Shown here piece by piece: positions 19,519-55,193 of a stretch of 64,000 nucleotides of DNA. Position numbers and translations under genes: made by a program. The DNA is from an uncultured Thiotrichales bacterium (GTDB taxonomy: Bacteria > Pseudomonadota > Gammaproteobacteria > UBA4575). The notes under the pieces are model-generated. The model saw only the letters and a program-made list of their open reading frames with translations, was not told where the DNA came from and did not search any database. The stretch spans positions 75,371-139,370 of the forward strand of contig CAZAOO010000004.1 in NCBI GenBank assembly GCA_964486815.1, in the 5' to 3' direction. How positions within the stretch are numbered: position 1 is the stretch's first letter; each line of letters starts with the position of its first letter.

Positions 19519-19610
19519 AATTAATAATAAAATGTACTTTACAACTATTTCTATAATAAAACTTATTTCAGTAATATTGTGTCTTTTACCAAAGTGATTT
19601 GTAAATAAAG

Positions 19611-20852: not shown

Positions 20853-20876
20853 TATCTACTTGATAGACATGAAACA

Positions 20877-21164: not shown

Positions 21165-21187
21165 GAAATTTCTCTAGCTATTAAGAT

Positions 21188-24094: not shown

Positions 24095-24100
24095 TTCACT

Positions 24101-26285: not shown

Positions 26286-28361
26286 ATGAAAAATACAGTC
26301 AAGAATATTATTAATAAAATGTCTGTTGGACAAAAAGTTCTGACAATAATATTTCTTGAAATTTTCTCTTATTCAGTAGTAACTACAATTGCACTGTCAC
26401 AAATTAGCTTGGTAGGTAATGTAGTTACGCAGACATCAGATCTATATTTACCCCTATTTAACTCATCTGAATCGATTCGACATCAAATACAAGATAGCCG
26501 ATTAAATTTAAAAGATATTATTTTTGTTGGTGACCGTGTAGTTTACGACAAGGAAGCTGAAGAAGCTTACATTGCTGCGCGTGGCCGCTACCAAGAAGCA
26601 AACAGTAAGATCAACGAAGAAATCGACTGGGCTGACAAGTTAATCAGCAAAGCTGCTTCACAAAAAGATAAACAATATAATTTAATCAGAGAATTCAGCC
26701 AGAACTTACTGCGCCAGCTATCTAGCCTTAGACAAGCCGGCCGTATTCATAATGTACGTGCTGAGAAAGTATTTCGACATGTAGAAGACGGTTCGTTCTT
26801 GATGGGAATGGAAATGGTTTCTGATGTCGAGGCAAGTGAAAAAACGCTTATTAATGAATTAGACGCACTTGTTAACGAACTAAGTAATCTTAATGATGCA
26901 TCAGTTGAATATGCAGATAGAGTTGAAAACACCGCATCCAGTTTTACTATACTTGCTTCAATCATCACTATTTGTATAGTTATCACTATTTTTTACTATG
27001 TGGTTAAAAGAAATATATCTGACCCTTTACATGCATTAACCGACACTATTAACTCCATTAGCGCATTACATGATGTTAAGGACTCAGAACAAGAAAAAGA
27101 ACTCATGTCACGCGGAGACGAACTGGGAATGGTAAGCCGAAGCTTCAGCACATTGAAACACGATTTAAGCGCACAAGATAAGAATCTGCGTAATGCAAAA
27201 GAGGAAGCTGAACGAGCAAATCGTGCAAAATCACAATTTCTGGCTGCAGCAAGTCACGACCTCCGCCAACCGCTACATGCAATGCAGATGTACATAACAG
27301 CATTACAACTAAAAATTAAAGACAAACACTTACTTAAGATAGTTTCAGATATCGATGCAGTTTCTATATCAACAGGACGTTTATTAAATTCAATCTTGGA
27401 TGTTTCACAGTTAGAAGCTGGAGCGGTAAAACCTCAAATCGAAGACTTTGCTATACAAGAAGTGTTGCACAGAGTTGCTCGTGGTTTTCGTCCAATGTCT
27501 TACCGTAAAGGAATAGCATTACATATTGTTCCATCAAAAGCATATGTGCGCAGCGATCCTATTCTATTAGAACAAATCATAGGAAACTTTGTTGCCAATG
27601 CCATCCGCTACACAGAAACAGGACGTGTATTATTAGGATGTAGACGTAGAAAAGGAAAACTATCTATTGAAGTTTTGGACACAGGGCCAGGCATACCCTT
27701 ACATCAACGTGATGCAATCTTCGATGATTTTCATCAACTAGATAATAAAGAACGCGATCGAGGCAAGGGACTTGGTCTTGGATTAGCAATAGTTCGGCGA
27801 CTTTCTATATGCCTAGACCATCAAATAGAACATACTTCCAGAGTTAACCAAGGATCACGTTTTGCTGTAATTGTCGAAATGGGTAATCGGCCCGCAAAAA
27901 ACATTCAACCAAGAAGGTATGAAACAACTTTGCTAGATTTAAATAATACTTCGGTATTGTTGATCGAAGATGATGCAATGGTGCTAAATGCAACCAAACA
28001 ACTTCTTGAGTCTTGGGGATGTAATGTAATCTGTGCTAAATCGGCAATAGAAGCAGAACGATTATTGTTTGACCCACAGAAAATTCCGGACATCATTATT
28101 GCTGACTACCGTCTACCAGAGAGTGTTAATGGCGTACAAGCCATTAATAATATTACTACGAAACTAGGCTATCCAATTCCCGCGTTTATTATTACAGGTG
28201 AAGCGAACACCAGCGAAGTTCGTAAAATTGCAGACCACGGTTACCACGTACTATCAAAACCAGTCCATCCTGCAAAATTAAGAGCGCTTATCTCTCATTT
28301 AATTCATGAGCCTAGGGATACTTTATTACCAACAGATCAACTCAAGATATCTGTTTTATGA
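26286..28361 (+). CDS. Hybrid sensor histidine kinase/response regulator with a ~180-aa periplasmic domain
   Basis: Two transmembrane segments bracket a periplasmic region, followed by HAMP-like, HisKA (AAASHDLRQPLHAM), HATPase_c (GLGLGLAIVRRL) and a C-terminal receiver (VLLIEDDAMVL...IIADYRLPE) domain. Confidence 0.85.
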   Translation: MKNTVKNIINKMSVGQKVLTIIFLEIFSYSVVTTIALSQISLVGNVVTQTSDLYLPLFNSSESIRHQIQDSRLNLKDIIFVGDRVVYDKEAEEAYIAARGRYQEANSKINEEIDWADKLISKAASQKDKQYNLIREFSQNLLRQLSSLRQAGRIHNVRAEKVFRHVEDGSFLMGMEMVSDVEASEKTLINELDALVNELSNLNDASVEYADRVENTASSFTILASIITICIVITIFYYVVKRNISDPLHALTDTINSISALHDVKDSEQEKELMSRGDELGMVSRSFSTLKHDLSAQDKNLRNAKEEAERANRAKSQFLAAASHDLRQPLHAMQMYITALQLKIKDKHLLKIVSDIDAVSISTGRLLNSILDVSQLEAGAVKPQIEDFAIQEVLHRVARGFRPMSYRKGIALHIVPSKAYVRSDPILLEQIIGNFVANAIRYTETGRVLLGCRRRKGKLSIEVLDTGPGIPLHQRDAIFDDFHQLDNKERDRGKGLGLGLAIVRRLSICLDHQIEHTSRVNQGSRFAVIVEMGNRPAKNIQPRRYETTLLDLNNTSVLLIEDDAMVLNATKQLLESWGCNVICAKSAIEAERLLFDPQKIPDIIIADYRLPESVNGVQAINNITTKLGYPIPAFIITGEANTSEVRKIADHGYHVLSKPVHPAKLRALISHLIHEPRDTLLPTDQLKISVL

Positions 28362-28441: not shown

Positions 28442-29140
28442 TTATGAATATTCTTTATCTCTTTTAAGTTGCGAGTACATGGCCACAGCTTCCGTACGGT
28501 TTTGTACGTTTAAAGTTTTAAAAATGCGAGATGAATGCATTTTAACTGTCCCGACATTTAAACCAAGATCATTTGCAATGTCTCTGTTCGGTTTACCAAG
28601 CGCCATGAGGTCTAATACTTCCAGTTGTCGCGGTGTAAGTTGCGTGTAGCCCTTCTCTAAAGAGCTCCCAAATGATTCTGCTGTGTAAGTTTGCTCAAGT
28701 GCTTGATCATCGCTAGATGAAACTGTCCCTAAAATATGTGGAGGTACATACACTCCACCAGATAAAACCAATTTTATTGCACTCATCATCACTTCTGGTG
28801 ATGATGTTTTAGGTATATAGCCCATTGCGCCCGCAGCCAGAGCGCTACGTATTGCTGCTATATGCTCTCTAACCGAGACTACGATTACGGGTACATCAGG
28901 CCACTCTTTACAAATTTGTTTAATACCTTCCATGCCACTCATACCAGGCATTAAAAGATCCAGCAATAATAAATCTACAGAGTTACCTTCATTTAGAAAG
29001 TCTAAAGTTTGCTTAAAACCACTAGTCTCGACAATTTCTACATTCTCTTGAACTAATTTAACTAATTGAACAAGACCGCCACGTACCAATGCATGATCAT
29101 CTGCTACCACAATTCTAAAAATTGAAGAATCAACACTCAT
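28442..29140 (-). CDS. NarL/FixJ (LuxR-type) response regulator
   Basis: Receiver domain (IVVADDHALVRGGL, LLLLDLLMPGMSG) and a C-terminal LuxR HTH (LTPRQLEVLDLMALGKPNRDIANDLGLNVGTVKMH). It is divergent from urtA. Confidence 0.85.
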   Translation of the reverse strand: MSVDSSIFRIVVADDHALVRGGLVQLVKLVQENVEIVETSGFKQTLDFLNEGNSVDLLLLDLLMPGMSGMEGIKQICKEWPDVPVIVVSVREHIAAIRSALAAGAMGYIPKTSSPEVMMSAIKLVLSGGVYVPPHILGTVSSSDDQALEQTYTAESFGSSLEKGYTQLTPRQLEVLDLMALGKPNRDIANDLGLNVGTVKMHSSRIFKTLNVQNRTEAVAMYSQLKRDKEYS

Positions 29141-29420: not shown

Positions 29421-29492
29421 TATATGTATTGACCCAGTTGCCTATATATGATTCACTATATGCCATAAGTCTATATACTTATGACCGTGTCC
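29421..29492. promoter_or_regulatory. Conserved promoter/operator block upstream of urtA; TTGACC...ATATATGATTCACT...GCCATAAGT-N6-ACTTATGAC
   Basis: The sequence tattgacccagttgcctatatatgattcactatatgccataagtctatatacttatgacc is re-found with few changes upstream of dmfA1 (34865-34935). The palindromic core is shared with 50748-50782. Confidence 0.4.
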
Positions 29493-29636: not shown

Positions 29637-30971
29637 ATGAAGAAAAACAAGCCTATTAGTAATAAACGAAGAGCGATCCTCAAAGGTTCGGCTGCAGGCG
29701 TTACTGCAGCGGCTTTAGGATTCCCATCGTTTTTTGTTAAAAACGCATCCGCTGCTACACCTTGGATAAAGAAGGGTGATAAAACCATTAAAGTAGGCTT
29801 ACTTTGGTCTACAACTGGAAATTTAGCGGTTATTGAAAACGACTCAACTCAAGTTGCTCTATATGCAATCGATGAAATCAATGCCGCGGGGGGGGTTGCT
29901 GGAAAAATGATTGAACCCATCGTTATTGATGCTAAATCAGACATAAAAGTCTATTCAGAAAAAATAAGTCAGTTGATCTTAAAAGATCGCGTAATTTCAA
30001 CCTTCGGTGGCTACACATCAGCAAGTCGTCGTGCAGTTGCACCGATTGTAATGGCACGCGATCATCTTTTCTACTACCCAACCTGCTATGAGGGTCGCGA
30101 ATGCACACAAAACATTATTAACACTGGGCCGTTAGCAAACCAACATTCACAAGACCTTATTCCATTCATGGTGAAGGAATTTGGCCCTAAATGTTATTTA
30201 ATTGGTTCCAACTACATTTGGCCAAAAGAGTCCAATAAAAATGCCAAAGTGTGGTTAGAACGTGCAGGTGGTGAAATAGTAGGTGAAGATTATGTACCGC
30301 TTGGTGGTTCAGAATTCATACCAGTTTTCAATAAAGTACGTCAAGCCAAGCCAGACTTTATCTTCTCAACAGTTGTAGGTGATTCAGATATCGCTATGCA
30401 CAAACAATTCTTACAAGAAGGCTTTAAGTCCGACAAACTCCCTATTGCTGCACTTACAACAGGGGAGATTGAAATACGCGCTATGGGTGCCGAAGCTGGT
30501 GCTGGACATTTCCTTTCTGCACCTTATTTCCAAACTCTGGACAACCCTACTAATCAGAAATTTGTAGAAGGTTATCTAGGTAGTAAATATGGTGGTGGAG
30601 GTGTAACCCATTACAATATGGAAGAAACATATCTATCGCTATATGTATGGAAGTATGGTTTAGAGAAGGCGTTAAAAGAAACCGGCAATATCGAAGACAT
30701 TACTCCACGTATGATTCGTGATGTTTCTGGCGGCATAAGAGTTGAAGACGATGTTTCTCCAGAAGGCTTGATTTGGATTGATCCTGACAACTTCAATACT
30801 TGGCTTAAACCAAAAATAGGTCAATGTGGATCAGACGGTCAATTCAAGATAGTAAAAGCTGCTGATGAGCATGTTGCACCGGATCCGATGTCAATCTATC
30901 CAGAACGAGGCGTATGCAAGGCAGATGGTTTACATACACCGGACGGAGAAATTAAAACCAACGTGCTTTAA
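29637..30971 (+). CDS. urtA: Urea ABC transporter substrate-binding protein
   Basis: 444 aa type-I PBP with a Sec/Tat-like signal (RRAILKGSAAGV). It is followed by the urtBCDE permease and ATPase genes. Confidence 0.9.
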   Translation: MKKNKPISNKRRAILKGSAAGVTAAALGFPSFFVKNASAATPWIKKGDKTIKVGLLWSTTGNLAVIENDSTQVALYAIDEINAAGGVAGKMIEPIVIDAKSDIKVYSEKISQLILKDRVISTFGGYTSASRRAVAPIVMARDHLFYYPTCYEGRECTQNIINTGPLANQHSQDLIPFMVKEFGPKCYLIGSNYIWPKESNKNAKVWLERAGGEIVGEDYVPLGGSEFIPVFNKVRQAKPDFIFSTVVGDSDIAMHKQFLQEGFKSDKLPIAALTTGEIEIRAMGAEAGAGHFLSAPYFQTLDNPTNQKFVEGYLGSKYGGGGVTHYNMEETYLSLYVWKYGLEKALKETGNIEDITPRMIRDVSGGIRVEDDVSPEGLIWIDPDNFNTWLKPKIGQCGSDGQFKIVKAADEHVAPDPMSIYPERGVCKADGLHTPDGEIKTNVL

Positions 30972-31197
30972 ATTTAAGCTTGATTCGTGTGAGTAGCAAC
31001 TTAGGCATACATGCTGAAGTCGTTACTCACTTCGAGCAAGAATTTGCTAATAAACGTTAGCTTTTTAGGTCGTTAGTTTGAGCACATAAAAGAATAGTAA
31101 CTACCTGTGTATGCATTATAAAAATAATGTTTATAAAACTAAAAAATGCTAATTGCAGTTATGCCCTAACAGGTAAATTCAAGGAGAAGATTAGTTA

Positions 31198-32100
31198 ATG
31201 AGCCTTCATGATTTTTGGACCCCTTTTTCTTTATATCCATTTTTAAATGCACTTTTTATTGGAATTAGCCTCGCAAGTATTTTTTTTATTGCTGCACTGG
31301 GACTAACCATAATTTATGGTGCGATGGGTGTCATTAACATGGCACATGGTGAATTCATCATGTTGGGTGCATATACAACTTATGTATTTCAACATTTTTT
31401 AGGCGTGCCATTTCTACTCTGTTTGCCCTTGGCTTTTATTGTGCTTGCATTAATTGGCTTACTGATTGAACGAGGAATCATACGGACGCTCTATCAACGA
31501 CCGTTAGATACACTATTAGCAACCTGGGGATTATCACTAATTTTAATACAAGGTATACGCTTAATTTTTGGTGGTGATCCCAAATACATAGGAGTGCCTA
31601 AATTTTTAGATTTTCAAATCGCAGCCAACTTTATTCATTTATCAGGAGTACGGCTCTTCATAATTATTTTTGCAATTTTAATCGGTTTTGCAACTTGGTT
31701 CCTGATGTACAAAACCACTCTAGGGATGCGGGTCCGTGCAGTGATGCAAGATAAAGAAATGGCGGCATCTTTTGGTATCGATGCTAATAAGATTTACAGC
31801 ATTACTTTCGCTTATGGCGCTGGATTGGCAGGTGTTGCAGGAGCTTTGTTTGGTGCACTGAAAACACTATTCCCTGATATGGGTAGCGGTTATATTGTTG
31901 AAGCTTTTCTAGTAGTAGTAGTTGGAGGTATCGGGCTGCTTGGCAGTATGTTTAGCTCAGCTATTCTTGGACAATTGAGTTCAATATTCTCATACTTTAC
32001 CAACGAAACCTTCGCACGCTTCATTTTGTTTACACTCATTGTTATATTTCTTAGATTTCGTCCACAAGGCCTTATCACTGATGGGGCAACGCGACGCTAG
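31198..32100 (+). CDS. urtB: Urea ABC transporter permease (LivH-like)
   Basis: 300 aa polytopic LivH-family permease. Confidence 0.9.
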   Translation: MSLHDFWTPFSLYPFLNALFIGISLASIFFIAALGLTIIYGAMGVINMAHGEFIMLGAYTTYVFQHFLGVPFLLCLPLAFIVLALIGLLIERGIIRTLYQRPLDTLLATWGLSLILIQGIRLIFGGDPKYIGVPKFLDFQIAANFIHLSGVRLFIIIFAILIGFATWFLMYKTTLGMRVRAVMQDKEMAASFGIDANKIYSITFAYGAGLAGVAGALFGALKTLFPDMGSGYIVEAFLVVVVGGIGLLGSMFSSAILGQLSSIFSYFTNETFARFILFTLIVIFLRFRPQGLITDGATRR

Positions 32101-32139
32101 TTATAAGAACCGCACTATAGAATCTGGAGAATTAACAAA

Positions 32140-33231
32140 ATGAATGGCAATATTTATCACAATCGCAAAGCACAGTGGGCTATTTATATTGTGGTATTTG
32201 TGTTGCTTGCGTTGTTACCTTTTGTATTTGATAACCCTTTCACCTTAAACCAGTTTGCTCGTTATATTATTTTTTCATTAGCGGCTGTATCGGTATCGTT
32301 GGTTTGGGGATATGGCGGAATATTAAGCTTAGGCCAAGGCATTGCTTTTGGAATGGGTGCTTATGGAATGGGTGCCACGATGCAAATGCAATTTCAAGAT
32401 CCTGAATCGGATCCGATTCCTACATTCATGTTGACCAACGAATTAGAATCCTTGCCTCTAGTTTGGGAACCGTTCTGGTCAACACCTATTGGGTTATCGT
32501 TAGCCATTGGAATACCAACACTATTCTTTTTAGTTTTTGGTTACATGATGTTTCAAGCAAGAGTCGCGGGAGTGTTCGTGGCTATTATGACCTTAGCAAT
32601 GCTTTCGGCGTGGTATAGCGTGACATACGACATGCAACCTTTTACTGCAGGTTTTAATGGTATTTCACCACCGTCACCCTTTGAAATATTTGGTACGCAG
32701 ATTGATCCCTATAGTTCGACTGCCTATTGGATTTGTGTTGCTTTTCTCGCCATTCTAACTTTAGGTACTAAATTTATGTTGCATACAAAATTTGGACTCA
32801 TCGTACAAGCCATGCGCGATGATCCAGAACGCGCACGATTCTTAGGTTACAGCGTGGCTTACTATCAAACAGTTTTGTTTACTCTTTCAGGATTCATTGC
32901 TGCTTGTGCAGGAATATTATGGGTCATGATTACCCAATATGTATCACCTACTTCAATGGAAATTATGTTAAGTATTTCTTTTGTCATTTGGGCAGCTGTG
33001 GGTGGTCGTACCTCATTACTAGGGGCTATTATTGGAGCCTTTTTAATTAATTGGGGGCAAAGTTATGCAGGTGATGAGTTTAGACAATTATGGCTAATCA
33101 TTATCGGAAGCATATTTCTAGTGGTTGTATTATTTCTTCCAAAAGGGATCACAGGACTGTTTGAATATTTATTAGGAAAAATTTCTGGAAACAATAGTGA
33201 AGCTAATAATACAACGGGGCAAAAAGTATAA
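32140..33231 (+). CDS. urtC: Urea ABC transporter permease (LivM-like)
   Basis: 363 aa LivM-family permease with an N-terminal extension. The stop overlaps the urtD start (TAATG). Confidence 0.9.
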   Translation: MNGNIYHNRKAQWAIYIVVFVLLALLPFVFDNPFTLNQFARYIIFSLAAVSVSLVWGYGGILSLGQGIAFGMGAYGMGATMQMQFQDPESDPIPTFMLTNELESLPLVWEPFWSTPIGLSLAIGIPTLFFLVFGYMMFQARVAGVFVAIMTLAMLSAWYSVTYDMQPFTAGFNGISPPSPFEIFGTQIDPYSSTAYWICVAFLAILTLGTKFMLHTKFGLIVQAMRDDPERARFLGYSVAYYQTVLFTLSGFIAACAGILWVMITQYVSPTSMEIMLSISFVIWAAVGGRTSLLGAIIGAFLINWGQSYAGDEFRQLWLIIIGSIFLVVVLFLPKGITGLFEYLLGKISGNNSEANNTTGQKV

Positions 33232-33974
33232 TGGCAATACTTGAGCTTAAAGAAGTTACAAAAAAATATAATGATTTTTCAGTCATTAATGGATTAAACC
33301 TCAGTGTCAATGAAGGTGAATTACGATGCTTAATTGGCCCTAATGGTGCAGGCAAAACCACTTCATTAGACTTGATTACTGGTCGTCAAAAGCTCACTTC
33401 GGGAACCGTACACTTTGATGGTAAAAATATCACAAAGTTAATGGAGAAACAGATAGCTATCTTAGGCATAGGTAGAAAATTTCAAATACCTGCGATATTT
33501 AAGGAATTAACCGTGCGAGAAAATTTTGAAGTAGCACTTACTAGCAAAATTGGCCCATTTCAAAACATGAATCCATTCTCTACAAATAGAGGAAAAAATC
33601 ACTATAACAAGATTATAGAGCTTACAGGTTTAGGCAGCCGACTAAATGATATTGCTGGTTTACTATCTCATGGAGAAACTCAGTGGTTAGAAATTGGTAT
33701 GGTGCTAATGCAAAAACCACGACTATTGTTGATGGATGAACCTACCGCAGGGATGACCGAACAAGAAACAGAAAAAACTTCAGAGATTTTTAAAGAATTA
33801 AAAGGTGACCACACTTTAGTTGTAGTCGAGCACGATATGTCTTTTGTGAAAAGTATTGCTGATGTTATCTCTGTTATGCATCAAGGCTGCATGCTTGCCG
33901 AAGGAACCTTATCTGAGATTGAACAGCACCCTAAAGTTAAAGAAGTATATCTCGGCACAGAAGGAATTAATTAA
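33231..33974 (+). CDS. urtD: Urea ABC transporter ATP-binding protein
   Basis: Walker A GPNGAGKTT, signature LSHGETQWLEIG, Walker B LLLMDEPTAGM. Confidence 0.9.
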   Translation: MAILELKEVTKKYNDFSVINGLNLSVNEGELRCLIGPNGAGKTTSLDLITGRQKLTSGTVHFDGKNITKLMEKQIAILGIGRKFQIPAIFKELTVRENFEVALTSKIGPFQNMNPFSTNRGKNHYNKIIELTGLGSRLNDIAGLLSHGETQWLEIGMVLMQKPRLLLMDEPTAGMTEQETEKTSEIFKELKGDHTLVVVEHDMSFVKSIADVISVMHQGCMLAEGTLSEIEQHPKVKEVYLGTEGIN

Positions 33975-33975
33975 C

Positions 33976-34671
33976 ATGCTAGAACTAAATAATGTTACTT
34001 CCTTCTATGGCAAAACACCCATCCTTCAGGGTATCAATATCTCCATGCAAGAAGGCCAATGTCTATGTGTTCTTGGCCGAAATGGCGTAGGCAAAACCAC
34101 ATTGCTACAAACCATTATGGGTCTTACAACGAGCATGACGGGCACACTAAAAATCAATAATCAGGACTTTTCTAACCAACCCACGCATGCACGCGCGCAT
34201 GCAGGCTTAGGCTATGTACCTCAGGGTCGTAGAATTTTAGGGAAATTCAGTGTGCGTGAAAATATTGTACTTGGCACTTTCGCACGCAACGACAAATCCA
34301 ACTCACTACCGGAATCTTGTTTGAAACTATTCCCTTATCTGGCAGATAATCTTGATAAACGTGCAGGTTTACTATCTGGTGGGCAACAACAACAACTCGC
34401 CGTAGCAAGAGCCTTAGCAACGGACCCAAAAGTTTTATTGCTCGATGAGCCCACGGAAGGCATTCAACCTAATATCGTAGAAGAAATACAAAACACCCTA
34501 CATCATTTAAATAAAGATATGGGAATGACACTGGTTCTGACTGAACAACACATAAAAATTGCTAAAAAATTAGCAGACTTATTTATTATCATGGATATCG
34601 GCCACATTGTCGCACATGGCCCGATTAGTGAACTCACTGAAGAGCTTGCGCATAAGCACTTGACTATTTGA
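33976..34671 (+). CDS. urtE: Urea ABC transporter ATP-binding protein
   Basis: Walker A GRNGVGKTT, signature LSGGQQQQLAVA, Walker B LLLDEPTEG. The ATG at 33976 directly after the urtD stop is preferred over the longer overlapping ORF at 33856. Confidence 0.85.
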   Translation: MLELNNVTSFYGKTPILQGINISMQEGQCLCVLGRNGVGKTTLLQTIMGLTTSMTGTLKINNQDFSNQPTHARAHAGLGYVPQGRRILGKFSVRENIVLGTFARNDKSNSLPESCLKLFPYLADNLDKRAGLLSGGQQQQLAVARALATDPKVLLLDEPTEGIQPNIVEEIQNTLHHLNKDMGMTLVLTEQHIKIAKKLADLFIIMDIGHIVAHGPISELTEELAHKHLTI

Positions 34672-34864
34672 TTTTATTATAAGAACTAATAAACCATCCT
34701 GATAAAGTCAGCTATAAGTTACGTCTAGTATCTACTTGATTAACATACATTCAGTAAGTCGAGTTTTGTCGAATTATTAAATGATTCAACCTACTCTACG
34801 AGTCTTCTATATTTGCAATATCTATCGATACAGATAGCCGATCTTTCTTAATATTTCGCAGTAG

Positions 34865-34935
34865 TTCTATATTGACCTATAAGCCAATATATGATTCACT
34901 TATGGTCATTAGACAGTAGTCTTTTGGCTATAATT
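34865..34935. promoter_or_regulatory. Second copy of the conserved promoter/operator block, upstream of dmfA1
   Basis: The sequence ttctatattgacctataagccaatatatgattcacttatggtcattag aligns with 29421-29492. TTGACC, ATATATGATTCACT and the half-site ACTTATGG are shared. Confidence 0.4.
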
Positions 34936-35060
34936 GCGCATGCTTTTATATTGATTGCATATATAAAAATGGTCAACTCAAAACCTGAGGATCAAGCTTA
35001 TTAAATACAACATTTTTTAACTCATCACTACAACTCATGCAATTTGCGGAGGAAGAATAA

Positions 35061-35510
35061 ATGATATCTATACCTAAAAAAGGAACTCCTGAACGTGAAA
35101 GACTTATCGCTACTCACAAGGAATGTATCGAATCCATGAAAGGTGTACCTGGCTGCACCATCATGAAGTGTGAAACTCAAGGCGACACCACCAACATTTC
35201 AGGTGGATTTCAAGAAGACCCATTACTAAATAAAGTTTTAATTCGCATGCGCACAGCCATGCCAGGAAACTTTGGAGGAAAATTAGTAGTGATTTGTACA
35301 AAAGTAGAAAAAGAATGGCGTATTGGACGGCTATCAGGTATTCGCGGTGTTCCACCAACATTTGTCGGTAAGAAAGTTTATGACAACGAACAAGATCCGC
35401 AACATGACATCTTCTTAATGCGCTTAGATGAACTAGATGAAGAAGATGGATATCCCGAGCACTTTAATGAAGGTTGGAAACGTCGAAATGATAATTGGAC
35501 GGTAACCTAG
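35061..35510 (+). CDS. dmfA1: N,N-dimethylformamidase small (alpha) subunit-like protein
   Basis: 149 aa with a GGAGG RBS. It is positioned immediately upstream of the large-subunit gene, as in known dmfA1A2 operons. The segment RIGRLSGIRGVPPTFVGKKVYDNEQDPQHDIFLMRLDEL is homologous to the 113-aa small protein at 44755 and to the C-terminus of the permease at 45149. Confidence 0.55.
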   Translation: MISIPKKGTPERERLIATHKECIESMKGVPGCTIMKCETQGDTTNISGGFQEDPLLNKVLIRMRTAMPGNFGGKLVVICTKVEKEWRIGRLSGIRGVPPTFVGKKVYDNEQDPQHDIFLMRLDELDEEDGYPEHFNEGWKRRNDNWTVT

Positions 35511-35563
35511 ATAACGGATTAGACATAATAAATAAAGAATAATTTAGATCAGGAGAACATGAT

Positions 35564-37963
35564 ATGTGTGCAATGAGATTAACGGGTTACGCTGATAAGT
35601 TTGGCGTCCATCCCGGAGATACAATTAAATTCCATGTGAATTGTGACGGACCCAAAAAATATGATTGCCAAATCGTAAAAATGATTCATGGCGATACTAA
35701 TCCACGTGGCCCTGGGTTTATTGAAAAAAAAGTTTCTGCTAAATGTAACGGTGAATATAAAGGTAGACCACAAACTATCTATAGTGGTTCTTATGGTTAC
35801 ACAGATGACTTCAGCCACTTTCAAGTTGAATCCTTTACTATGCAGTGTTGGATTTGGCCAACAACACCAAAAACGCATCCAAAATATTGGCGTCATGGTG
35901 CGCAAGGTTTAATGACAAAATGGTGTAAGGGCAAAGGTTATGGATTATTTATTAACGAAGATGGTTGTTTGGAATTACGCATAAACAACAAGAAAATTAC
36001 CACAGGTGCCCCCATCCGTGATCATGCCTGGCATTTTGTTGCTGCAACGTTTGATGCTAAAACTGGCAAGGCAACTCTTTATCATGAGCCACAGATTCAG
36101 TATGCCTTGGACCCTGATATCCCACCTGTTACAGAGAAAATTAGCGGTAAAATCCAACACACTGATGGTGTTCCATTTGCAGTAGCAGCGTATGCGGATG
36201 GCGCAAGTTCAAATCCGCAGGCACAAGCTTCACGCCCTGCAGGCATGATCATGACAGGCCATTACAATGGCAAAATCGATAGCCCAAGACTGTGTAGACG
36301 CGCATTAAGTCGACAAGATATTGAAACCATGAAGCTTGGTGCACAGCCCGGCTTAACTGAACGCCGACATAGTGGTCCTACAGGCCCATTGTCTGAAGCT
36401 ATAGTGGGTGCATGGGATTTCTCAGATGGAATAAACACCATGGTAGGCATAGATCACGGTCCATACTTATATGACTTAGAAATTGTAAATTGTCCAACTC
36501 GAGCAATGACCGGATATAACTTCTCGGGTCACAACTTTGATTGGAAACACGCACCTGAAGAATACGGTGCAATTCATTTTCACGATGACGATGTCGATGA
36601 TGCACGCTGGGATGTTGATTTCGAATGGGATGTACCTAAAGGCACTGACAGTAAATTTTATGCTGCAAAACTAACCACAGATTCTGGTGACGAAGAATAC
36701 ATACCGTTTTGGGTGGTTCCACATGTTGGCGAAGAGACCGCTAAAATTGCTTACATGGTGCCAACGATTAGTTATATGGCTTATGCAAACGAACACCTTG
36801 CAAACAATGCAGGTGGTGCAGAATTGTTAGTCTATCGTGTACCGATCATGCAAGACCAAAACATGTTTTTAAGTGAACACCGTGAATATGGTGGTTCTAT
36901 TTATGACACCCATACAGATGGTAGTGGTCTATGTTTGTCATCGCGTTTACGACCAATCTTGAGTATTCGTCCGAAATACGATCACTTTTTAATGCAAGCT
37001 CCATGGCAATACCCTGCTGATCTACACATGATCTATTGGCTGGAAGAAATGGGCTACGAATATGATTGTATTACCGACGAAGATGTTACCTATGATGGTC
37101 TAGCACGACTTGAGAATTACAATGTCGTAATAACGGGTTCTCACCCAGAGCACAACAGTGGTCCACAACTAGATGCTTTACATAACTATACACAACAAGG
37201 TGGACGCTTGATGTATATGGGTGCTGATGCTTGGTATTGGATCCATTCGTATCATCCTGCATACGATAATTTAGGTCGAGGCATTGTTACCGAGATGCGT
37301 CGTTGCGAATCTGGTATTCGCACCTGGCGTGCAGATCCTGGTGAGTATTATCACCAAGGCACTGGTGAACTCGGTGGTATGTGGCGTTATCGCGGTCGCT
37401 ATCTGCACTCCGTTGCCGGTACTGGAATGTCTTCAGAAGGTTTCGATATTTCTTCCTACTACTCACGAACTTATGAAAGTAAAGATCCTCGTATATCTTG
37501 GGCATTTGACGGCATTGCTTATGATGAGAAGATTGGAAACTTTGGTTTAGTCGGTGGTGGTGCCGCAGGAACAGAGCTCGACATTGTCGATACTATGTTA
37601 GGTTCTCCTCCGCACACCTTAGTAGGTGCTACTTCTGCTGGGCGTCACACGGAAGCTTACCTTTTGGTAATGGAAGACTATGGCTTTAGCCAGCAAGGTA
37701 TTGATGGTACACAACATCCACGTGTTCGATCTGATATTGCATTTCATGAAACTCCGAATGGTGGTGGATGTTTTGCATTTAGCTCAATAGCTTTTTGTGG
37801 ATCACTTCCATGGAACAATGGTAAGAACAACATTTCTACATTAGTAGGAAATGTTTTAGATCGTTTCATGAAAGATGGACCATTACCTGCAGCACCTAAG
37901 AGCGCTTACATTCATCGTGGACGTGCAGATCACGATCCAGCAATGAACAAAAAAGCGAAGTAA
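35564..37963 (+). CDS. dmfA2: N,N-dimethylformamidase large (beta) subunit
   Basis: 799 aa. N-terminal strings MRLTGYADKFGVHPGDTIKFHVNCDG...HGDTNPRGPGFIEKKV plus the overall length and domain layout fit the DMFase beta subunit (~760-800 aa). It is a paralogue of the 773-aa ORF at 42395. Confidence 0.7.
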   Translation: MCAMRLTGYADKFGVHPGDTIKFHVNCDGPKKYDCQIVKMIHGDTNPRGPGFIEKKVSAKCNGEYKGRPQTIYSGSYGYTDDFSHFQVESFTMQCWIWPTTPKTHPKYWRHGAQGLMTKWCKGKGYGLFINEDGCLELRINNKKITTGAPIRDHAWHFVAATFDAKTGKATLYHEPQIQYALDPDIPPVTEKISGKIQHTDGVPFAVAAYADGASSNPQAQASRPAGMIMTGHYNGKIDSPRLCRRALSRQDIETMKLGAQPGLTERRHSGPTGPLSEAIVGAWDFSDGINTMVGIDHGPYLYDLEIVNCPTRAMTGYNFSGHNFDWKHAPEEYGAIHFHDDDVDDARWDVDFEWDVPKGTDSKFYAAKLTTDSGDEEYIPFWVVPHVGEETAKIAYMVPTISYMAYANEHLANNAGGAELLVYRVPIMQDQNMFLSEHREYGGSIYDTHTDGSGLCLSSRLRPILSIRPKYDHFLMQAPWQYPADLHMIYWLEEMGYEYDCITDEDVTYDGLARLENYNVVITGSHPEHNSGPQLDALHNYTQQGGRLMYMGADAWYWIHSYHPAYDNLGRGIVTEMRRCESGIRTWRADPGEYYHQGTGELGGMWRYRGRYLHSVAGTGMSSEGFDISSYYSRTYESKDPRISWAFDGIAYDEKIGNFGLVGGGAAGTELDIVDTMLGSPPHTLVGATSAGRHTEAYLLVMEDYGFSQQGIDGTQHPRVRSDIAFHETPNGGGCFAFSSIAFCGSLPWNNGKNNISTLVGNVLDRFMKDGPLPAAPKSAYIHRGRADHDPAMNKKAK

Positions 37964-38076
37964 GGCTTGGTACTTTTGCAATACATTGGCTAACTTAAGT
38001 AAGTTGAATTATTTCAAAATGTGTAAACCTCCAAAGCATCATTGACACAATCAGGTGTCAATGATGTACAAGGCAA

Positions 38077-39291
38077 TTGAATTACAATAACGTTGGATGG
38101 TGCAATATGGATTTTCATCCAGATATGGGTTACATAGAGAATGGTGTCGATCTCACCAATAATGATTTATATAAATCGACAAACCTACCCTTCGGACAAG
38201 CTTCGATACTTCCACCCTTTTCGTATCAATCAAAAATTTTTAGTGATCTAGAAGATGAAAAACTCTGGACACGCAATTGGATAGCTGTCGGATTCACTCA
38301 TGAAATACCTAACGCAGGAGATCTTTTACCCTTCACAGTCGGACATCATGGCTTACACGTTCAACGACAAGAAGATGGCAGTTTAATAGGTCGGTTCAAT
38401 AAAGCTCAGCATGGCGGATGTCGTGCAGTACCACTGCAATGCCAAACTGGCAAGAAAACCAAATGCTCCTTTACCTCTTGTGGTTACAGTCGTGACCGAA
38501 ATGTTATTCACGTACAAGAAATTGGGGAAAATACCCCGACCATGCATCAATATATAGGATTAATTCCTGAAAGATTATTGCCTGTAAAAGTAGAAGTTTT
38601 AGGTTCAATTATTTTTATTAACCTAGATAATGAATGCAATAAGCTTGCAGATGAATTCTCGGCAGTAGCCAAGGATATCAAATTATCTTTAAACGAAGAT
38701 TTTATATTACAAAATAATGTGTGGATTGAATGCGCCTCAAATTGGAAATTTTCTGGGCGCGCTTTCTTTGATGGAAATAACATATGCAATAGTATTTCAA
38801 ATCATAGCAATAATAATATTTACAATTTCTTTATTAGTCAAAATGTTTCTACTCAAGAAATAGGTCTAAATATTGATGATGCTAATGAAGATAATATGAA
38901 TTATGTACAACTAAGTTGGTTATTCCCTAACATAGTGCTTATTCAACACACAGATTTTCTTGTAAGCGTAATTTTACAGCCCACAAACATGGGCGAAACT
39001 AATTTACGCACTTCTTTGTTTTTAAAAGACCATTACAGAAATGATGTTGCATCCCACCTGCTAACAAATTTGCGAGAATACATGCAATCCATCACATCAA
39101 GAGCACTACAAATGCAAAGTCAAGCTGATGAGCTAACTGCGCCGGGCGCTCCTGAATTTAAAAGCAACATGATTCCAATTGAAACGAATTTGGCAGGTTA
39201 CTCTTTCAATCGTTACATAATTGGAAAAATTGAAAAAGAGCATCAGTATTACTGGAACGCACCACTATATAGCAACAATATTAGGCGTTAG
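38077..39291 (+). CDS. Hypothetical protein with an N-terminal Rieske/ring-hydroxylating-oxygenase-alpha-like region in which canonical cluster ligands are replaced by a 4-Cys pattern
   Basis: The spacing W..VGFTHEIPNAGDLLPFTVG..GLHVQRQEDGSLIGRFN mimics the Rieske-oxygenase N-terminus. Where CxH / CxxH are expected, the sequence reads QHGGC...C-x7-C-x4-CGY. An Asn-rich low-complexity insert is present. Confidence 0.3.
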   Translation: MNYNNVGWCNMDFHPDMGYIENGVDLTNNDLYKSTNLPFGQASILPPFSYQSKIFSDLEDEKLWTRNWIAVGFTHEIPNAGDLLPFTVGHHGLHVQRQEDGSLIGRFNKAQHGGCRAVPLQCQTGKKTKCSFTSCGYSRDRNVIHVQEIGENTPTMHQYIGLIPERLLPVKVEVLGSIIFINLDNECNKLADEFSAVAKDIKLSLNEDFILQNNVWIECASNWKFSGRAFFDGNNICNSISNHSNNNIYNFFISQNVSTQEIGLNIDDANEDNMNYVQLSWLFPNIVLIQHTDFLVSVILQPTNMGETNLRTSLFLKDHYRNDVASHLLTNLREYMQSITSRALQMQSQADELTAPGAPEFKSNMIPIETNLAGYSFNRYIIGKIEKEHQYYWNAPLYSNNIRR

Positions 39292-39326
39292 TAATCCTGG
39301 AAATTAAAATAATATTAGATTAAGTA

Positions 39327-40013
39327 ATGGCAAATAAAAAGGAAAACAATATGAACCAAGCACGTCAAGCATATAACAAGGGTGACTATGAAAGAGCACA
39401 TGATATTTGGCTGACACAAGCCGAAAATGGCAGTCCTGAGGCACAAGCTTGGCTGGGATCTTTATATGCGAATGGTGAAGGTGTTGATGCCGATGAAAAA
39501 AATGCCTTATCTTGGTACGAAAAAGCTGCTGAACAAGGCAACTCAATGGCACAAGCTAATGTAGGTGCAATGTACTATATGGGGCAAGGTACCAGCAAAA
39601 ATGTCGATAAAGCCATCAAATGGCTATCCGCTGCTGCTGAGAATGGTGATGTTAATGGATTATTCAATCTAGCGGTTATTTACAGCAAAGGTGAAGATGT
39701 TGAAAAAAATACCGAACGTGCTGCTGAGCTATATCAACAAGCATCTGAACAAGGCCATTACCCTTCACAATCTCGTTTAGGTTACATGTATGCGCATGGA
39801 CAAGGTGTAAAAAAAGATCGTATCAAAGCTTATATATGGTTAAGCCTTGCTGCACAGCATGGTATCGGCACTGCATTAAGTGAGCTCGAATCAATCGTGA
39901 AAAGCATGTCTGCAGAAGAAAAAGCTATGGGGGCAACATTATCAGAGCAATGGCGCAATAAAACTGGGGCCAACAAAATGCAAGTTGCATTGCAACCTGC
40001 CCCCTCAAATTAA
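39327..40013 (+). CDS. Sel1-like repeat (TPR-related) protein
   Basis: Five or more repeats of the A..G.A.A...LG..Y..G.GV..D...A..W(Y/L)..AA.QG pattern. Confidence 0.75.
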   Translation: MANKKENNMNQARQAYNKGDYERAHDIWLTQAENGSPEAQAWLGSLYANGEGVDADEKNALSWYEKAAEQGNSMAQANVGAMYYMGQGTSKNVDKAIKWLSAAAENGDVNGLFNLAVIYSKGEDVEKNTERAAELYQQASEQGHYPSQSRLGYMYAHGQGVKKDRIKAYIWLSLAAQHGIGTALSELESIVKSMSAEEKAMGATLSEQWRNKTGANKMQVALQPAPSN

Positions 40014-40060
40014 ACCTAACAGCTAATAATCGGCCAAATTTTTATTTACTAGCTATATTT

Positions 40061-40366
40061 ATGATTTACAGCGTTCAACAAATCAAATTTGAAATTCTTG
40101 CCCACATCAAAGAATTTGGTGGTGAATTTAAGGACTGGTATGTTGGCATTGCAGCAGACCCTAAAAGTACATTGTTTAAAAAACATAAAGTACATAAAGA
40201 AGATGATATATGGCTTCATAAACAAGCACTCACTTTCACAGCATGCAAAACTACTCAAAAATATTTTTTGGATATTTTAAAAACAGATGGAGAAGAAGTT
40301 TCAGAGGGCGATGAGGATACTGATTGCGTCTATCTTTATAAAAAAAGTAGTCGCACAATTCCTTAA
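40061..40366 (+). CDS. Hypothetical small protein
   Basis: 101-aa ORF with no recognisable motif. An alternative overlapping-frame ORF exists at 40089-40280. Confidence 0.25.
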   Translation: MIYSVQQIKFEILAHIKEFGGEFKDWYVGIAADPKSTLFKKHKVHKEDDIWLHKQALTFTACKTTQKYFLDILKTDGEEVSEGDEDTDCVYLYKKSSRTIP

Positions 40367-42394: not shown

Positions 42395-44716
42395 TTATCT
42401 CCACTGTTTTTCTTCAAGCGTCCAGCTTCCCCCTGGAAGTTCACCATCCTTAATAAAATTATCGACAACATTTTTAAGCAAGCTTGAAGCGCCATTTTTA
42501 TAATCATTTGCAGGCAAAGCTGATCCAAAAGCAATTGAGCCTGTGCTAAACACAGCACCATTATTGGGTGCTGTAAAATAAGTTATATCTGCGCGTACAC
42601 GATAATCTAAGCTACCAACTAAGCCTGCATAGGCATACAAAAGCTCTTCCGTTACTACCACATAGTTATCACTATGCCCTCCCGATGAGGCAATAATTTT
42701 AGTATGCGGCGGCGTACCTAATGAGAGATCGTAGCGATCTAGCTCAATTCCCGCAGCACCACCATAAGCTAAACCTTCATCACCAAAAACCTCATCCTCA
42801 ATTCCTTCTGTGAGCCAAGAAACGGTTCGATGATAGCTATCAGGCATTTTCCTAAAAGGTGCACTAGTTTCAAATCCTTCTGCAATAAAACCTACGCCGG
42901 TAAGTTTTTGCGGTGCACGCCCACGTGTTCTCCACAAACCACTCTTCTCACCTGTGGTTTGCAAATAGTGTTCACCAGCTTTTGCCGCCCAAGCACGCAT
43001 ACCTGAATCTAATTTTCTAACTTCCATACACCAAGGTTCATCCTCATTAAAACCGATACACCAGTAATAACCATTGCCACCCATATATATGAGTCGCCCA
43101 CCTTGAGCTACAAAGTCTTCTTGTGCATCTAACATCCGTTCCGAAACATATTCTGGATGTGTGCCAGTCATTACACAGTTATAAGGTTCTAATGCACTTA
43201 ATTCTTCCTGATGTAAATCTTCATCAGTAATAATGTCATAGTCATAACCACTCGCTTCAAGCCAAGCTATAATGGAAAGATCAGCAGGAAATTGCCACGG
43301 CACATTCATACTTGATATGCGATATTTCGGTCGCATATTTACGATGGGCCTCTTATAGGAACTGAATGACACACCCGCACCATCCTCATAACTGTCGTAC
43401 GTTGACAATCCAAATTCACCATTTTTATAAATTTCAATATCGACATCACTGATTACAGGTGGTTGCCCTGTCATAGGTTGTATTATTTGTGCATCAAAAC
43501 TTAATTTTTCATTTGCATAGGCAAGATAACTAGCAGTAGGAACCAAAAAACATAATTTAGATGTAGGTTTAGCTGGTCTTACAAAAAAGACTACATATTC
43601 TTCACCCAACCCATTACCACTACCTGCAGTTAAACGAAATGCATATACTCCACTTTTTAAATTTTCCGGGACCTGCATAGATTTAGTTACTTCCCAATTA
43701 CAATCTGTAACTGACTCAGGGTGGAACTCAATACCTCCATACTCATACGGTGCCAGCCTGAAACAATCATTTTTCCCTGACCAATTCCAACCTGTTAAAC
43801 CTCGTACAGGATGATTTACACCAACTGCATTAAGTTTATGGGGACCAATATCGACAACCGTGTTACCGATACCATTTTCCGTATAGCCTTCCGTTGTATC
43901 CCAGTACGCTAAGATAGAGTTTTTGGGTGGCAATTCGCCGGAACAAACTTTGTCTAATTCATCACGTGAAAGAGCTCGATTACAAATACCCGGGCGATCA
44001 ATTTTTCCGAAATACATGTCGTTAACAAAATTACCTCTTAATTCATGAAAATCTAATGCTCCTGCAATCATGAAAGGAACATCTTGTCTGTTTTTTTGTT
44101 TGAACCTAAGGGTAGTTTGCATGTGCGAGCTAAAATCATATGGCGTAACCTTTCCAATTAACGAGTTATAGCGATTCATAACTCCCTCTTGAAAAAGAGT
44201 TACTTTACCGCTACTAGGATCAAAACTTGCAGCTACGAAATACCAGACTTTATCTACTAGTGGTAATTCAGAAGCAATATAGTCAATCTCTGCGCCATCA
44301 CCCACCCAAAATTCGAGATGACCTTGCGGATTTATACCGATTCCATAACCCTCATTGGTGCGCGCATCTACTCGCCCTAATAGAGTTTGGCGTAAACCTT
44401 TTTTAGAGATGGTTGGCCAGATATAACAGAATATAGTGAAACTTCCTTCAACACATAGATGCTGATTTGGATCATCAACAACCAAATGCGAGCCTAACTG
44501 AGTGAACTGTTTTTTAACATCCCATTCCCCATTCACTGGACATTCAACTTCTTCTTCAACAAAACCTGGGCCGTCTACATGCTCGTCACCATGTATAAGG
44601 CGTACAAGTTGGGCATCTGCTGTTTTTGTTCCATCTGCATTTACATGAATATCAATATCCTCACCTTGTTTAACAGATATTTTATTCGTATATCCAAATA
44701 TTTTAATTTCAGCCAT
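42395..44716 (-). CDS. DMFase large-subunit paralogue (N,N-dimethylformamidase beta-subunit-like amidohydrolase), substrate unknown
   Basis: 773 aa. Clearly homologous to the ORF at 35564 along its whole length (MAEIKIFGYTNKISVKQGEDIDIHVNADG...LIHGDEHVDGPGFVEEEV vs MRLTGYADKFGVHPGDTIKFHVNCDG...MIHGDTNPRGPGFIEKKV). It is the last gene of an ABC-importer operon. Confidence 0.7.
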   Translation of the reverse strand: MAEIKIFGYTNKISVKQGEDIDIHVNADGTKTADAQLVRLIHGDEHVDGPGFVEEEVECPVNGEWDVKKQFTQLGSHLVVDDPNQHLCVEGSFTIFCYIWPTISKKGLRQTLLGRVDARTNEGYGIGINPQGHLEFWVGDGAEIDYIASELPLVDKVWYFVAASFDPSSGKVTLFQEGVMNRYNSLIGKVTPYDFSSHMQTTLRFKQKNRQDVPFMIAGALDFHELRGNFVNDMYFGKIDRPGICNRALSRDELDKVCSGELPPKNSILAYWDTTEGYTENGIGNTVVDIGPHKLNAVGVNHPVRGLTGWNWSGKNDCFRLAPYEYGGIEFHPESVTDCNWEVTKSMQVPENLKSGVYAFRLTAGSGNGLGEEYVVFFVRPAKPTSKLCFLVPTASYLAYANEKLSFDAQIIQPMTGQPPVISDVDIEIYKNGEFGLSTYDSYEDGAGVSFSSYKRPIVNMRPKYRISSMNVPWQFPADLSIIAWLEASGYDYDIITDEDLHQEELSALEPYNCVMTGTHPEYVSERMLDAQEDFVAQGGRLIYMGGNGYYWCIGFNEDEPWCMEVRKLDSGMRAWAAKAGEHYLQTTGEKSGLWRTRGRAPQKLTGVGFIAEGFETSAPFRKMPDSYHRTVSWLTEGIEDEVFGDEGLAYGGAAGIELDRYDLSLGTPPHTKIIASSGGHSDNYVVVTEELLYAYAGLVGSLDYRVRADITYFTAPNNGAVFSTGSIAFGSALPANDYKNGASSLLKNVVDNFIKDGELPGGSWTLEEKQWR

Positions 44717-44754
44717 TTTTTATTATTCCCAGATTAAATAGTTATCCATTAAAT

Positions 44755-45096
44755 TTAGGATTCCATTAGATCACTAATTCTTTTCAAAAATACCCCGTGG
44801 TAAGCATCTTCAATTGTTTTAAATTCCTTGCCTTCAACAATACGAGGAAGCTCACCTCTCACACCTGAAAGTGCAATGATTTTGAATGAACTAGTTTTAT
44901 TGTCGCGCTTAATCGCATATTTATTTTTTTGTGGTGCACTACAAAAATAATGCAACAATCTCGAAAGAGGTTCACTGTGCTGCCCATGAGAGTTGTTTTC
45001 ATGCTCTTGTATGACATCTTGGCAGACTAAAGTTTTTAGAAATTCGCTTTGTTTTTTATCGAAATATTCACGATAAAAAATATCTTTATCCTTCAC
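44755..45096 (-). CDS. DMFase small-subunit-like protein (free-standing)
   Basis: 113 aa with an apparent GTG start. ~60% identical to the C-terminal 115 aa of the permease encoded immediately upstream. Homologous to DmfA1 at 35061. Confidence 0.55.
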   Translation of the reverse strand: MKDKDIFYREYFDKKQSEFLKTLVCQDVIQEHENNSHGQHSEPLSRLLHYFCSAPQKNKYAIKRDNKTSSFKIIALSGVRGELPRIVEGKEFKTIEDAYHGVFLKRISDLMES

Positions 45097-47676: not shown

Positions 47677-47706
47677 ATCAAACCCACCTTAAATACTATT
47701 TACGGA

Positions 47707-49142: not shown

Positions 49143-49168
49143 GAAATTCGCCCCACTATTCTTTTACG

Positions 49169-52114: not shown

Positions 52115-52145
52115 AAATAATTACTCAAAGATTCGGAGATAAACC

Positions 52146-52841: not shown

Positions 52842-52845
52842 GAAA

Positions 52846-55181: not shown

Positions 55182-55193
55182 TATAGAAAATAA

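Follow-up and report, generated by a model that had tools for sequence, protein, structure and literature searches.

The stretch analysed here, 64,000 nucleotides from an uncultured Thiotrichales bacterium (contig CAZAOO010000004.1, positions 75,371 to 139,370; hereafter, the window), carries a pair of genes related to the small and large subunits of N,N-dimethylformamidase (DMFase, DmfA1A2). The pair belongs to a discrete, unusually conserved orthogroup and, with somewhat better than even confidence, appears to act together with a neighbouring Urt-like operon as a co-regulated module for the import and hydrolysis of a small neutral amide or an N-substituted urea, and not of N,N-dimethylformamide (DMF), a man-made solvent. 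The pair would then encode a metallo-amidohydrolase of two subunits, located in the cytoplasm and belonging to the DMFase (DmfA1A2) family, but separate from the DMF-degrading enzymes. As originally predicted, two-subunit DMFase-family genes are located 3' of an operon resembling the urea ATP-binding cassette (ABC) transporter. The operon (29637–34671) and the pair are all on the plus strand, separated by a spacer of 389 bp (34672–35060), and the small and large open reading frames (ORFs) lie 53 nt apart.

35061–35510, plus strand: small subunit, divergent, DMF_alpha/DmfA1-family; 149 aa, ATG start, GGAGGA Shine-Dalgarno sequence
35564–37963, plus strand: large catalytic subunit, DMFase family; 799 aa, ATG start, AGGAG 8 nt upstream

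Placement of the pair in the DMFase family

The large ORF can be assigned to the DMFase-like superfamily (Pfam DMFA2_C / KEGG K03418). It contains the DMFA2_C domain (5.4e-86, 289.8 bits, cut-off 27) and a LamG/pentraxin-like domain (Laminin_G_3, 41.1 bits, cut-off 27.6), and it matches the large subunit of the Paracoccus DMFase (6LVB_A) end to end with E=1.9e-151. In the case of the small ORF, no match was obtained in the local Pfam or NCBIfam collections or by phmmer against the PDB. Its 310 close homologues carry the precomputed Pfam family PF26354 'DMF_alpha'. A profile of these homologues searched against the PDB ranks the DMFase small subunit at the top, weakly (E=0.21), and aligns with a profile of three DmfA1 proteins in hhalign at 94% probability (E=1e-7, 95 columns). 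Furthermore, a second small ORF in the window (113 aa) serves as a bridge: it is 35% identical to DmfA1 (E=3e-18) and also matches the ORF at 35061–35510 (E=3e-7). On the strength of the profile–profile comparison and the bridging paralogue, the homology is taken as settled, and the ORF is identified as a genuine, distant DmfA1 relative. An AlphaFold2 model of the small subunit alone, built from a 17-sequence alignment, has a mean pLDDT of 40.7, and the small subunit probably folds only on the large one. At the level of the genes, the two-subunit architecture is present, with a predicted ~15-kDa alpha subunit encoded directly upstream of a ~85-kDa beta subunit.

Proven DMFases were located by a tblastn search of plasmids. 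The large subunit shares 38% identity, with 71 gaps, with DmfA2 of Paracoccus aminophilus plasmid pAMI2 and 35.6% with the copy of Methylobacterium sp. DM1, while the small subunit is ~24% identical to proven DmfA1. The best plasmid match to the large subunit is a second dmf-like locus of P. aminophilus, on the chromid pAMI5 (70.7% identity); hence, this species carries both dmf types. In the large protein databases, the large subunit has relatives at 75–98% identity in the Alpha-, Beta- and Gammaproteobacteria. When sequences are clustered at 50% identity, a single representative stands for the entire clade (77% identity, 1480 bits); the next cluster follows at 47% identity and 690 bits, a gap of 790 bits, and then come more than 1000 other family clusters. 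These high identities, the single representative and the gap to the next cluster place the pair in a discrete orthogroup within a large, mostly uncharacterised family. No orthology was found with an enzyme proven to hydrolyse DMF, the identities being 35.6–38% as against 75–98% within the clade. The label of a canonical DMFase, given in the original prediction, is therefore not supported by the comparison, which gives 36–38% identity for the large subunit and ~24% for the small one, a separate orthogroup, and an Asn547-to-Asp change in 82 of 82 members.

The window contains another pair of this family:

42395–45096, minus strand: second DMFase-family pair, with Liv-type ABC transporter genes at 45149–50515

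Its large subunit (773 aa) is 40% identical to pAMI2 DmfA2 with few gaps, retains Asn547, and is 39% identical to the large subunit of the first pair. As judged from these features, the second pair is nearer to the canonical DmfA type than the pair at 35061–37963.

Remodelling of the active site

In the Paracoccus DMFase, Y399, Y440 and E521 are the ligands of a mononuclear Fe, and H519 and E657 are catalytic (Arya et al. 2020). The ligands correspond to Y407, Y447 and E529 in the window large subunit, and the catalytic residues to H527 and E671; all five positions are invariant among the 82 clade members and the 150 family representatives aligned. Loss of the metal ligands had been named in advance as the check on the DMFase assignment, and Y407, Y447 and E529 are all intact.

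Asn547 of the Paracoccus enzyme is the proposed binder of the oxyanion and water, and the N547A mutant is inactive (Arya et al. 2020). The equivalent residue is Asp555 in every clade member, whereas Asn occupies this position in 148 of 152 family sequences, including pAMI2 DmfA2, the acylase 8HUY and the second paralogue of the window. A scan for clade-specific residues at family-conserved columns also gave His530, which adjoins the ligand position E521 and replaces Y522 (Tyr in 100% elsewhere), and Ala556, which replaces G548 (Gly in 97% elsewhere). As far as the alignment goes, the shell around the metal is specifically remodelled in the clade. Through such substitutions, the substrate might gain a new acid/base or hydrogen-bond partner, or the metal site might be altered.

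A five-gene block conserved across species

With one genome scanned per species, the clade was found at 80 loci, onto which the window proteins were mapped by tblastn; the denominators given below are the loci with enough flanking sequence. The closest related locus, from an uncultured Thiotrichales metagenome-assembled genome (MAG), shows 98% identity. The pair had been described as a two-gene unit, but three more genes (38077–40366) are co-conserved with it in 69–77 of 72–77 loci, in the order small, large, Rieske-like, Sel1-repeat and 101-aa ORF.

38077–39291, plus strand: degenerate Rieske-oxygenase-alpha-like protein, downstream of the large gene in 77 of 77 loci
39327–40013, plus strand: cytoplasmic Sel1-repeat protein (Pfam Sel1 2e-44), in 76 of 76 loci
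40061–40366, plus strand: 101-aa protein, in 69 of 72 loci

The small ORF is located directly 5' of the large gene in 76 of 77 loci, a UrtE-like gene just upstream of the block in 54 of 70 (~77%), and an orthologous UrtA-like gene upstream of it in 47 of 60. The trio was not found next to real dmfA1A2 operons, other paralogues or the second pair of the window.

The start of the Rieske-like gene is uncertain (TTG at 38077, ATG at 38107 or ATG at 38125). The canonical CxH...CxxH motif and 2-His-1-carboxylate triad were not found in its product, in which the first Cys and second His are replaced. Instead, the window protein and 81 homologues share a nearly invariant H112-x2-C115-x6-C122-x7-C130-x4-C135 motif, while the catalytic domain shows little conservation and gives no more than a marginal match (Ring_hydroxyl_A, E=0.005). 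The protein may represent a novel variant that binds metal and serves as a partner or maturation factor. The 101-aa ORF gave no credible match against Pfam, nor did its family profile against the PDB. All three proteins would presumably work with the enzyme.

Two of the related loci, L004 (CAXMUG010000115.1) and L082, are 98% and 75% identical at the protein level and were binned as 'Mycobacterium sp.' and 'Acidobacteria', respectively. The contig of L004 begins inside the large-subunit gene, its downstream gene order is that of the window, and it is probably mis-binned. Meanwhile, in Methyloversatilis and relatives (L039, L040, L044–L046, L057 and L060), the five-gene hydrolase block occurs without urtBCDE and is flanked by two different AmiC-like genes, with the pockets YSCMEYFVC and YSYYEYWVA; several of these loci also have an AmiR-like regulator and urease accessory genes.

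The Urt-like importer and the pocket of its binding protein

29637–30971, plus strand: substrate-binding protein with UrtA-like fold (Pfam Peripla_BP_5 4e-108; Tat-type signal RRAILK)
31198–32100, plus strand: ABC permease, UrtB-like (TIGR03409 321.7 bits, cut-off 250.3)
32140–33231, plus strand: ABC permease, UrtC-like (TIGR03408 316.5 bits, cut-off 296.2)
33231–33974, plus strand: ABC ATPase, UrtD-like (TIGR03411 314.2 bits, cut-off 304.1)
33856–34671, plus strand: ABC ATPase, UrtE-like (TIGR03410 288.6 bits, cut-off 285.8, domain from residue 42)

The true start of the UrtE-like gene is probably near 33976, not at the listed TTG, because the gene encodes 231 aa in a 97%-identical relative (L087). 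The binding protein does not reach the UrtA cut-off of TIGR03407 (323 against 492.75 bits). In Prochlorococcus UrtA, the urea-contact residues include W120, S122, Y141, Q144, E146, Y190, N246 and S274, and urea binding is lost or strongly weakened when W120, S122, Q144, Y190 or N246 is mutated (PMC10392092). The residues at nine contact positions are as follows:

Prochlorococcus UrtA and 8TG1: WSYQEYFNS
Transporter binding protein, 29637–30971: YSYCEYWVT
Sensor paralogue, 24936–26231: YSYCEYWIT
Pseudomonas aeruginosa AmiC (acetamide sensor): YSYPEYYVT

The transporter binding protein differs from UrtA at five of the nine positions, including W120, Q144, N246 and S274. The residues for the carbonyl oxygen and one nitrogen are retained, whereas smaller or hydrophobic residues are found at the three positions that contact the other urea nitrogen, as in AmiC: the equivalents of W120, Q144 and N246 are Y, C and V in the window protein and Y, P and V in AmiC. 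Compared with the AmiC pocket (Y83, S85, Y104, P107, E109, Y150, Y152, V and T233), seven of the nine positions are identical, with Cys for Pro107 and Trp for Tyr152. This signature is common to 52 of 56 orthologous binding proteins. The closest solved relatives match at 1e-62 to 1e-78. The nearest, 8TG1 (E=2.7e-78), is an unpublished 'extracellular ligand-binding receptor', yet has the full urea-type pocket; overall similarity hence does not predict pocket type.

The AmiC-like pocket, together with the AmiS/UreI channel found on pAMI5 in place of urtBCDE, points to a ligand of the type H2N-C(=O)-X, small and neutral, in which X is not a free amino group. The original suggestion that the Urt system may handle amide-type substrates is in line with this pocket, which resembles that of AmiC and not that of a urea-binding protein.

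In two Hansschlegelia loci (L036 and L050), a further DMFase-family paralogue, 35–36% identical and with the Asn retained, is located immediately 5' of the Urt-like operon, so that two family members flank one transporter.

Proposed sensing and co-regulation

24936–26231, plus strand: periplasmic UrtA/AmiC-like binding protein, putative ligand sensor (Tat-type signal RRDFIK)
26286–28361, plus strand: membrane hybrid sensor histidine kinase (NCBIfam hybrid histidine kinase/response-regulator families)
28442–29140, minus strand: response regulator with LuxR/GerE DNA-binding domain (Pfam Response_reg 1.3e-23, GerE 4.5e-16)
29427–29457, plus strand: shared upstream block, copy 1, ~180 nt 5' of the urtA-like start
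34870–34900, plus strand: shared upstream block, copy 2, ~160 nt 5' of the small-subunit start

The sensor paralogue is 54% identical to the transporter binding protein and scores 278.7 bits with TIGR03407 (cut-off 492.75). A kinase homologue is found near the block in 32 of 50 fully flanked loci, and the response regulator also recurs beside the block in related loci; the full triad is present on pAMI5.

The shared promoter block noted in the original prediction proved real. The 31-nt block TATTGACC-N5-GCC-N-ATATATGATTCACT has exactly two occurrences in 64 kb, with 0 expected by chance, and these lie only 5' of the transporter operon and of the small ORF. An exact search of the related loci gave no match to it, whereas a mismatch-tolerant search revealed a recognisable version at the same distances in related gammaproteobacterial MAGs. 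Such an arrangement suggests that the importer and the hydrolase block would be co-regulated by the adjacent two-component system. No riboswitch or other known RNA was found in 24000–51500.

Neighbouring genes and hosts

The window forms an island of genes that deal with small nitrogen compounds. In addition to the genes above, it contains:

6181–12583, minus strand: aliphatic amidase (CN_hydrolase, AmiE-type), AmiR (ANTAR) and a cytoplasmic AmiC-like protein, with CbbQ/vWA genes
12727–13575: UT-family urea channel
15175–24811: N-methylglutamate (NMG) pathway genes
50992–56003: urease cluster (ureE, ureF, fused ureAB, ureC)

In the first of these regions, the amidase genes are followed by genes for a CbbQ/NorQ-type AAA+ protein, a vWA protein (CbbO/NorD-like) and an acetyl-CoA synthetase, and the AAA+/vWA pair recurs in seven related loci. 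The urease genes are located 13 kb downstream; given this cluster and the UT channel, both encoded in the window, urea can be used without the Urt-like system. Across the related loci, urease lies within 10 kb downstream in 20 of 60, and an AmiE amidase occurs in 12 of 50.

A low-GC genome with NMG genes, as described beforehand, was confirmed: the guanine-plus-cytosine (GC) content of the window ranges from 0.32 to 0.44. The highest value, 0.444 at 36001–38000, coincides with the large-subunit gene, as against ~0.38 around it, which fits a highly constrained protein or a past transfer. A DMFase in such a genome had been regarded as unusual; close relatives are in fact common in marine MAGs. 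The hosts show a strong bias towards methylotrophs (Methylopila, Hansschlegelia, Methyloversatilis, Methyloligella, Hyphomicrobium, Methylobacterium, Xanthobacter and Ancylobacter), and marine MAGs, including Planktomarina, are also frequent.

Proposed function and alternative explanations

In the proposed module, the periplasmic binding protein would report the ligand to the hybrid kinase and the LuxR-type regulator, which in turn would act at the shared upstream element to induce the genes of both the importer and the hydrolase block. The Urt-like ABC system with its AmiC-like pocket would import the ligand, and the iron enzyme formed by the small and large subunits, together with the three partners, would hydrolyse a C–N bond beyond the reach of primary-amide amidases and urease. 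Methylamine or formate and ammonia or urea would be released as products and enter one-carbon (C1) and nitrogen metabolism through urease and, here, also through the NMG pathway. Both the direction of flow and the substrate class are what we infer. Considering the primary-carboxamide pocket, the N-substituted amides cleaved by the family and the urease and C1 neighbours, the candidate substrates may be ranked with an N-substituted urea first, N-methylformamide (NMF) or formamide second and DMF last. Among the N-substituted ureas, methyl- or dimethylurea would give methylamine, and an acyl-urea such as formylurea would give formate and urea. Methylguanidine, which would give methylamine and urea, was set aside; it is a cation and a poor fit with the AmiS/UreI channel, which in P. 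aminophilus takes the place of the ABC importer.

Several observations weigh against this reading. F708, equivalent to the F693 that constricts the Paracoccus pocket, is retained as in true DMFases. UrtB–E pass the NCBIfam equivalog cut-offs for the urea transporter, urease is a frequent neighbour, and the importer may carry urea too, by analogy with FmdDEF of Methylophilus. The Rieske-like metal motif of the partner could point to chemistry beyond simple hydrolysis, and the substrate class is drawn from pocket residues and gene neighbours. Moreover, the feeding of the product into the NMG pathway, as first proposed, is possible in this genome but not conserved: NMG genes are adjacent only here and in one of the 80 related loci, L015. 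The pathway was for this reason rejected as a conserved partner, and, with two such cases, methylamine as the product is weakly supported.

That the pair is a genuine N,N-dimethylformamidase, converting DMF (or DMF and NMF) imported by the Urt-like system to dimethylamine and formate, is considered quite improbable. The family, the two-subunit layout, the Fe ligands, the H519/E657 equivalents and F693 are all retained, methylotroph hosts could use dimethylamine, and public annotations call the clade enzyme a DMFase. However, the identity to proven enzymes is 36–38%, the essential N547 and two other family-invariant neighbours are replaced, and the pocket retains contacts for the NH2 and C=O groups of a primary amide, which DMF does not offer. 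Conservation at 75–98% identity over three proteobacterial classes, including open-ocean MAGs, suggests an old natural substrate, and DMF was first made in 1893 (PMC7686228). Furthermore, the pAMI5 locus was reported without a link to DMF utilisation, and P. aminophilus without pAMI2 cannot use DMF although it retains this orthologue (Dziewit et al., PMC4543880). The earlier suggestion that the enzyme may not serve DMF agrees with that report, although the result could also reflect a lack of induction or uptake and not specificity.

A simpler role in nitrogen scavenging, the hydrolysis of unsubstituted short-chain primary amides (formamide, acetamide) by an analogue of FmdA or AmiE with an FmdDEF-like importer, is unlikely, although it would account for the seven of nine AmiC-like pocket positions, the AmiS/UreI alternative carrier on pAMI5, the AmiC/AmiR-type regulators that flank the block in Methyloversatilis-type loci, and the weak formamide activity of the Paracoccus DMFase. 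For this task, a nitrilase-superfamily aliphatic amidase is already available in the window and in 12 of 50 related loci, and formamide would hardly seem to call for an enzyme of 800 aa with four partner proteins. In addition, characterised family members cleave N-substituted amides (DMF, N-acetyl-beta-phenylalanine and acetamiprid). That the pair is a nickel-independent urea hydrolase, coupled to a true importer of urea and backing up or replacing urease, is very unlikely indeed: the binding protein lacks W120, Q144 and N246 and stays below the UrtA cut-off, the Paracoccus DMFase is inactive on urea, and the window has its own UT channel and complete urease. The UrtB–E scores and the Asp and His gained beside the metal site, which could change the chemistry, would favour it. 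The presence of urease genes downstream in one third of loci has also been counted for it but better fits a role upstream of urease than a replacement of it. Lastly, the clade may have left simple amide hydrolysis for another reaction on a small nitrogen compound, with a remodelled, perhaps binuclear or redox-active, centre and the Rieske-like partner. Three family-invariant residues near the Fe are changed in this clade only, and the partner with its His/Cys4 motif is obligatory, as are two other clade-specific proteins. Nevertheless, the residues needed for hydrolysis are all retained except N547, the Rieske-like protein has neither canonical ligands nor conserved catalytic-domain residues, and no reductase or ferredoxin gene occurs in the conserved block; such a reaction is regarded as improbable.

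The import and hydrolysis module for a small neutral amide or N-substituted urea is retained as the favoured reading. More tentatively, the clade may be a distinct, ancient non-DMFase system, with a remodelled metal centre and three dedicated partners, which acts on a natural N-substituted urea or formamide supplied by a Urt-derived amide transporter. His530 and Asp555 beside the iron site possibly form a second metal site or an acid/base dyad. If such a system exists, it would represent an unrecognised, widespread route to methylamine or formate and to urea or ammonia in methylotrophs and marine bacteria, and the solvent-degrading DMFases now found on plasmids would have been recruited from this clade as their natural stock.

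Significance of the clade

The annotation 'N,N-dimethylformamidase' is attached to thousands of genes. The existence of such a gene is no surprise; what the window adds is a well-defined and widespread system for asking what the DMFase family does in nature. The clade is among the most conserved in the family, is set in a fixed context of ten genes and is marked by a unique substitution of an essential catalytic residue; it offers a testable handle on the natural function of the family and on a small organic-nitrogen substrate of methylotrophs and marine bacteria. It also carries a warning: such annotations are no evidence of DMF degradation, and this Urt-like operon should not be read as a urea transporter. 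The structural study of DMFase left open the origin of the enzyme and of its two new folds (PMC7686228), and 'N,N-dimethylformamidase' genes have been counted as ammonifying enzymes in ocean metaproteomes (PMC9477243). Marine studies list the clade enzyme simply as DMFase (PMC9477243, PMC10308929); no study on this clade was found in the literature beyond one sentence in Dziewit et al. (PMC4543880).

Comparison with known systems

The DmfA1A2 enzymes (Paracoccus sp. DMF, 6LVB; P. aminophilus pAMI2; Methylobacterium sp. DM1 pLVM1) share with the window pair the order of a small gene and then a ~800-aa large one, as well as the three domains, the 2-Tyr-1-Glu Fe ligands, the catalytic His and Glu and the pocket Phe of the large subunit. 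Compared with them, the window clade has N547 replaced by D, Y522 by H and G548 by A. Moreover, the true dmf operons are plasmid-borne and flanked by insertion sequences, without a link to an ABC importer or the trio, whereas the window clade is chromosomal and has both. The regulation would also differ, with a triad of binding protein, kinase and regulator in the window and the LuxR-type DmfR in true dmf operons.

The pAMI5 locus of P. aminophilus JCM 7686 (JCM7686_pAMI5p063-064) is an orthologue, with 70.7% identity in the large and 61% in the small subunit. The same Rieske-like gene is located 3', and genes for a UrtA/AmiC-like binding protein, a kinase and a regulator lie 5', as in the window. 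Unlike the window, it has an AmiS/UreI channel gene at the end of the cluster and no urtBCDE nearby, and neither the Sel1 gene nor the 101-aa ORF was detected there.

In the case of UrtABCDE (e.g., Prochlorococcus UrtA, PDB 8HIC), the five-gene layout and the binding-protein fold are common to the window operon, and the differences are the sub-cut-off score of the binding protein and five of its nine contact residues. AmiC of Pseudomonas aeruginosa (PDB 1PEA) has the pocket residues YSY-EY-VT in common with the transporter binding protein, with an overall match of only E=4e-49; AmiC is cytoplasmic, whereas both window proteins, with their Tat signals, are predicted to be periplasmic. FmdDEF of Methylophilus methylotrophus, described as a short-chain amide/urea importer (Mills et al. 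1998, as cited in PMC10781810), may be seen as the closest precedent in function and embodies the same concept of binding-protein-dependent small-amide uptake in a methylotroph, a likeness drawn from its description.

The N-acetyl-(R)-beta-phenylalanine acylase (8HUY) and the acetamiprid amidase AceAB (PMC11573777) share the fold and the metal-site residues of the window large subunit, and such enzymes show the DMFase family to act on various N-substituted amides and not on DMF alone. The acylase is more distant (5e-107) and retains the Asn (GGNGFYW), unlike the window clade, and its substrates are much larger than the linked binding-protein pocket would suggest.

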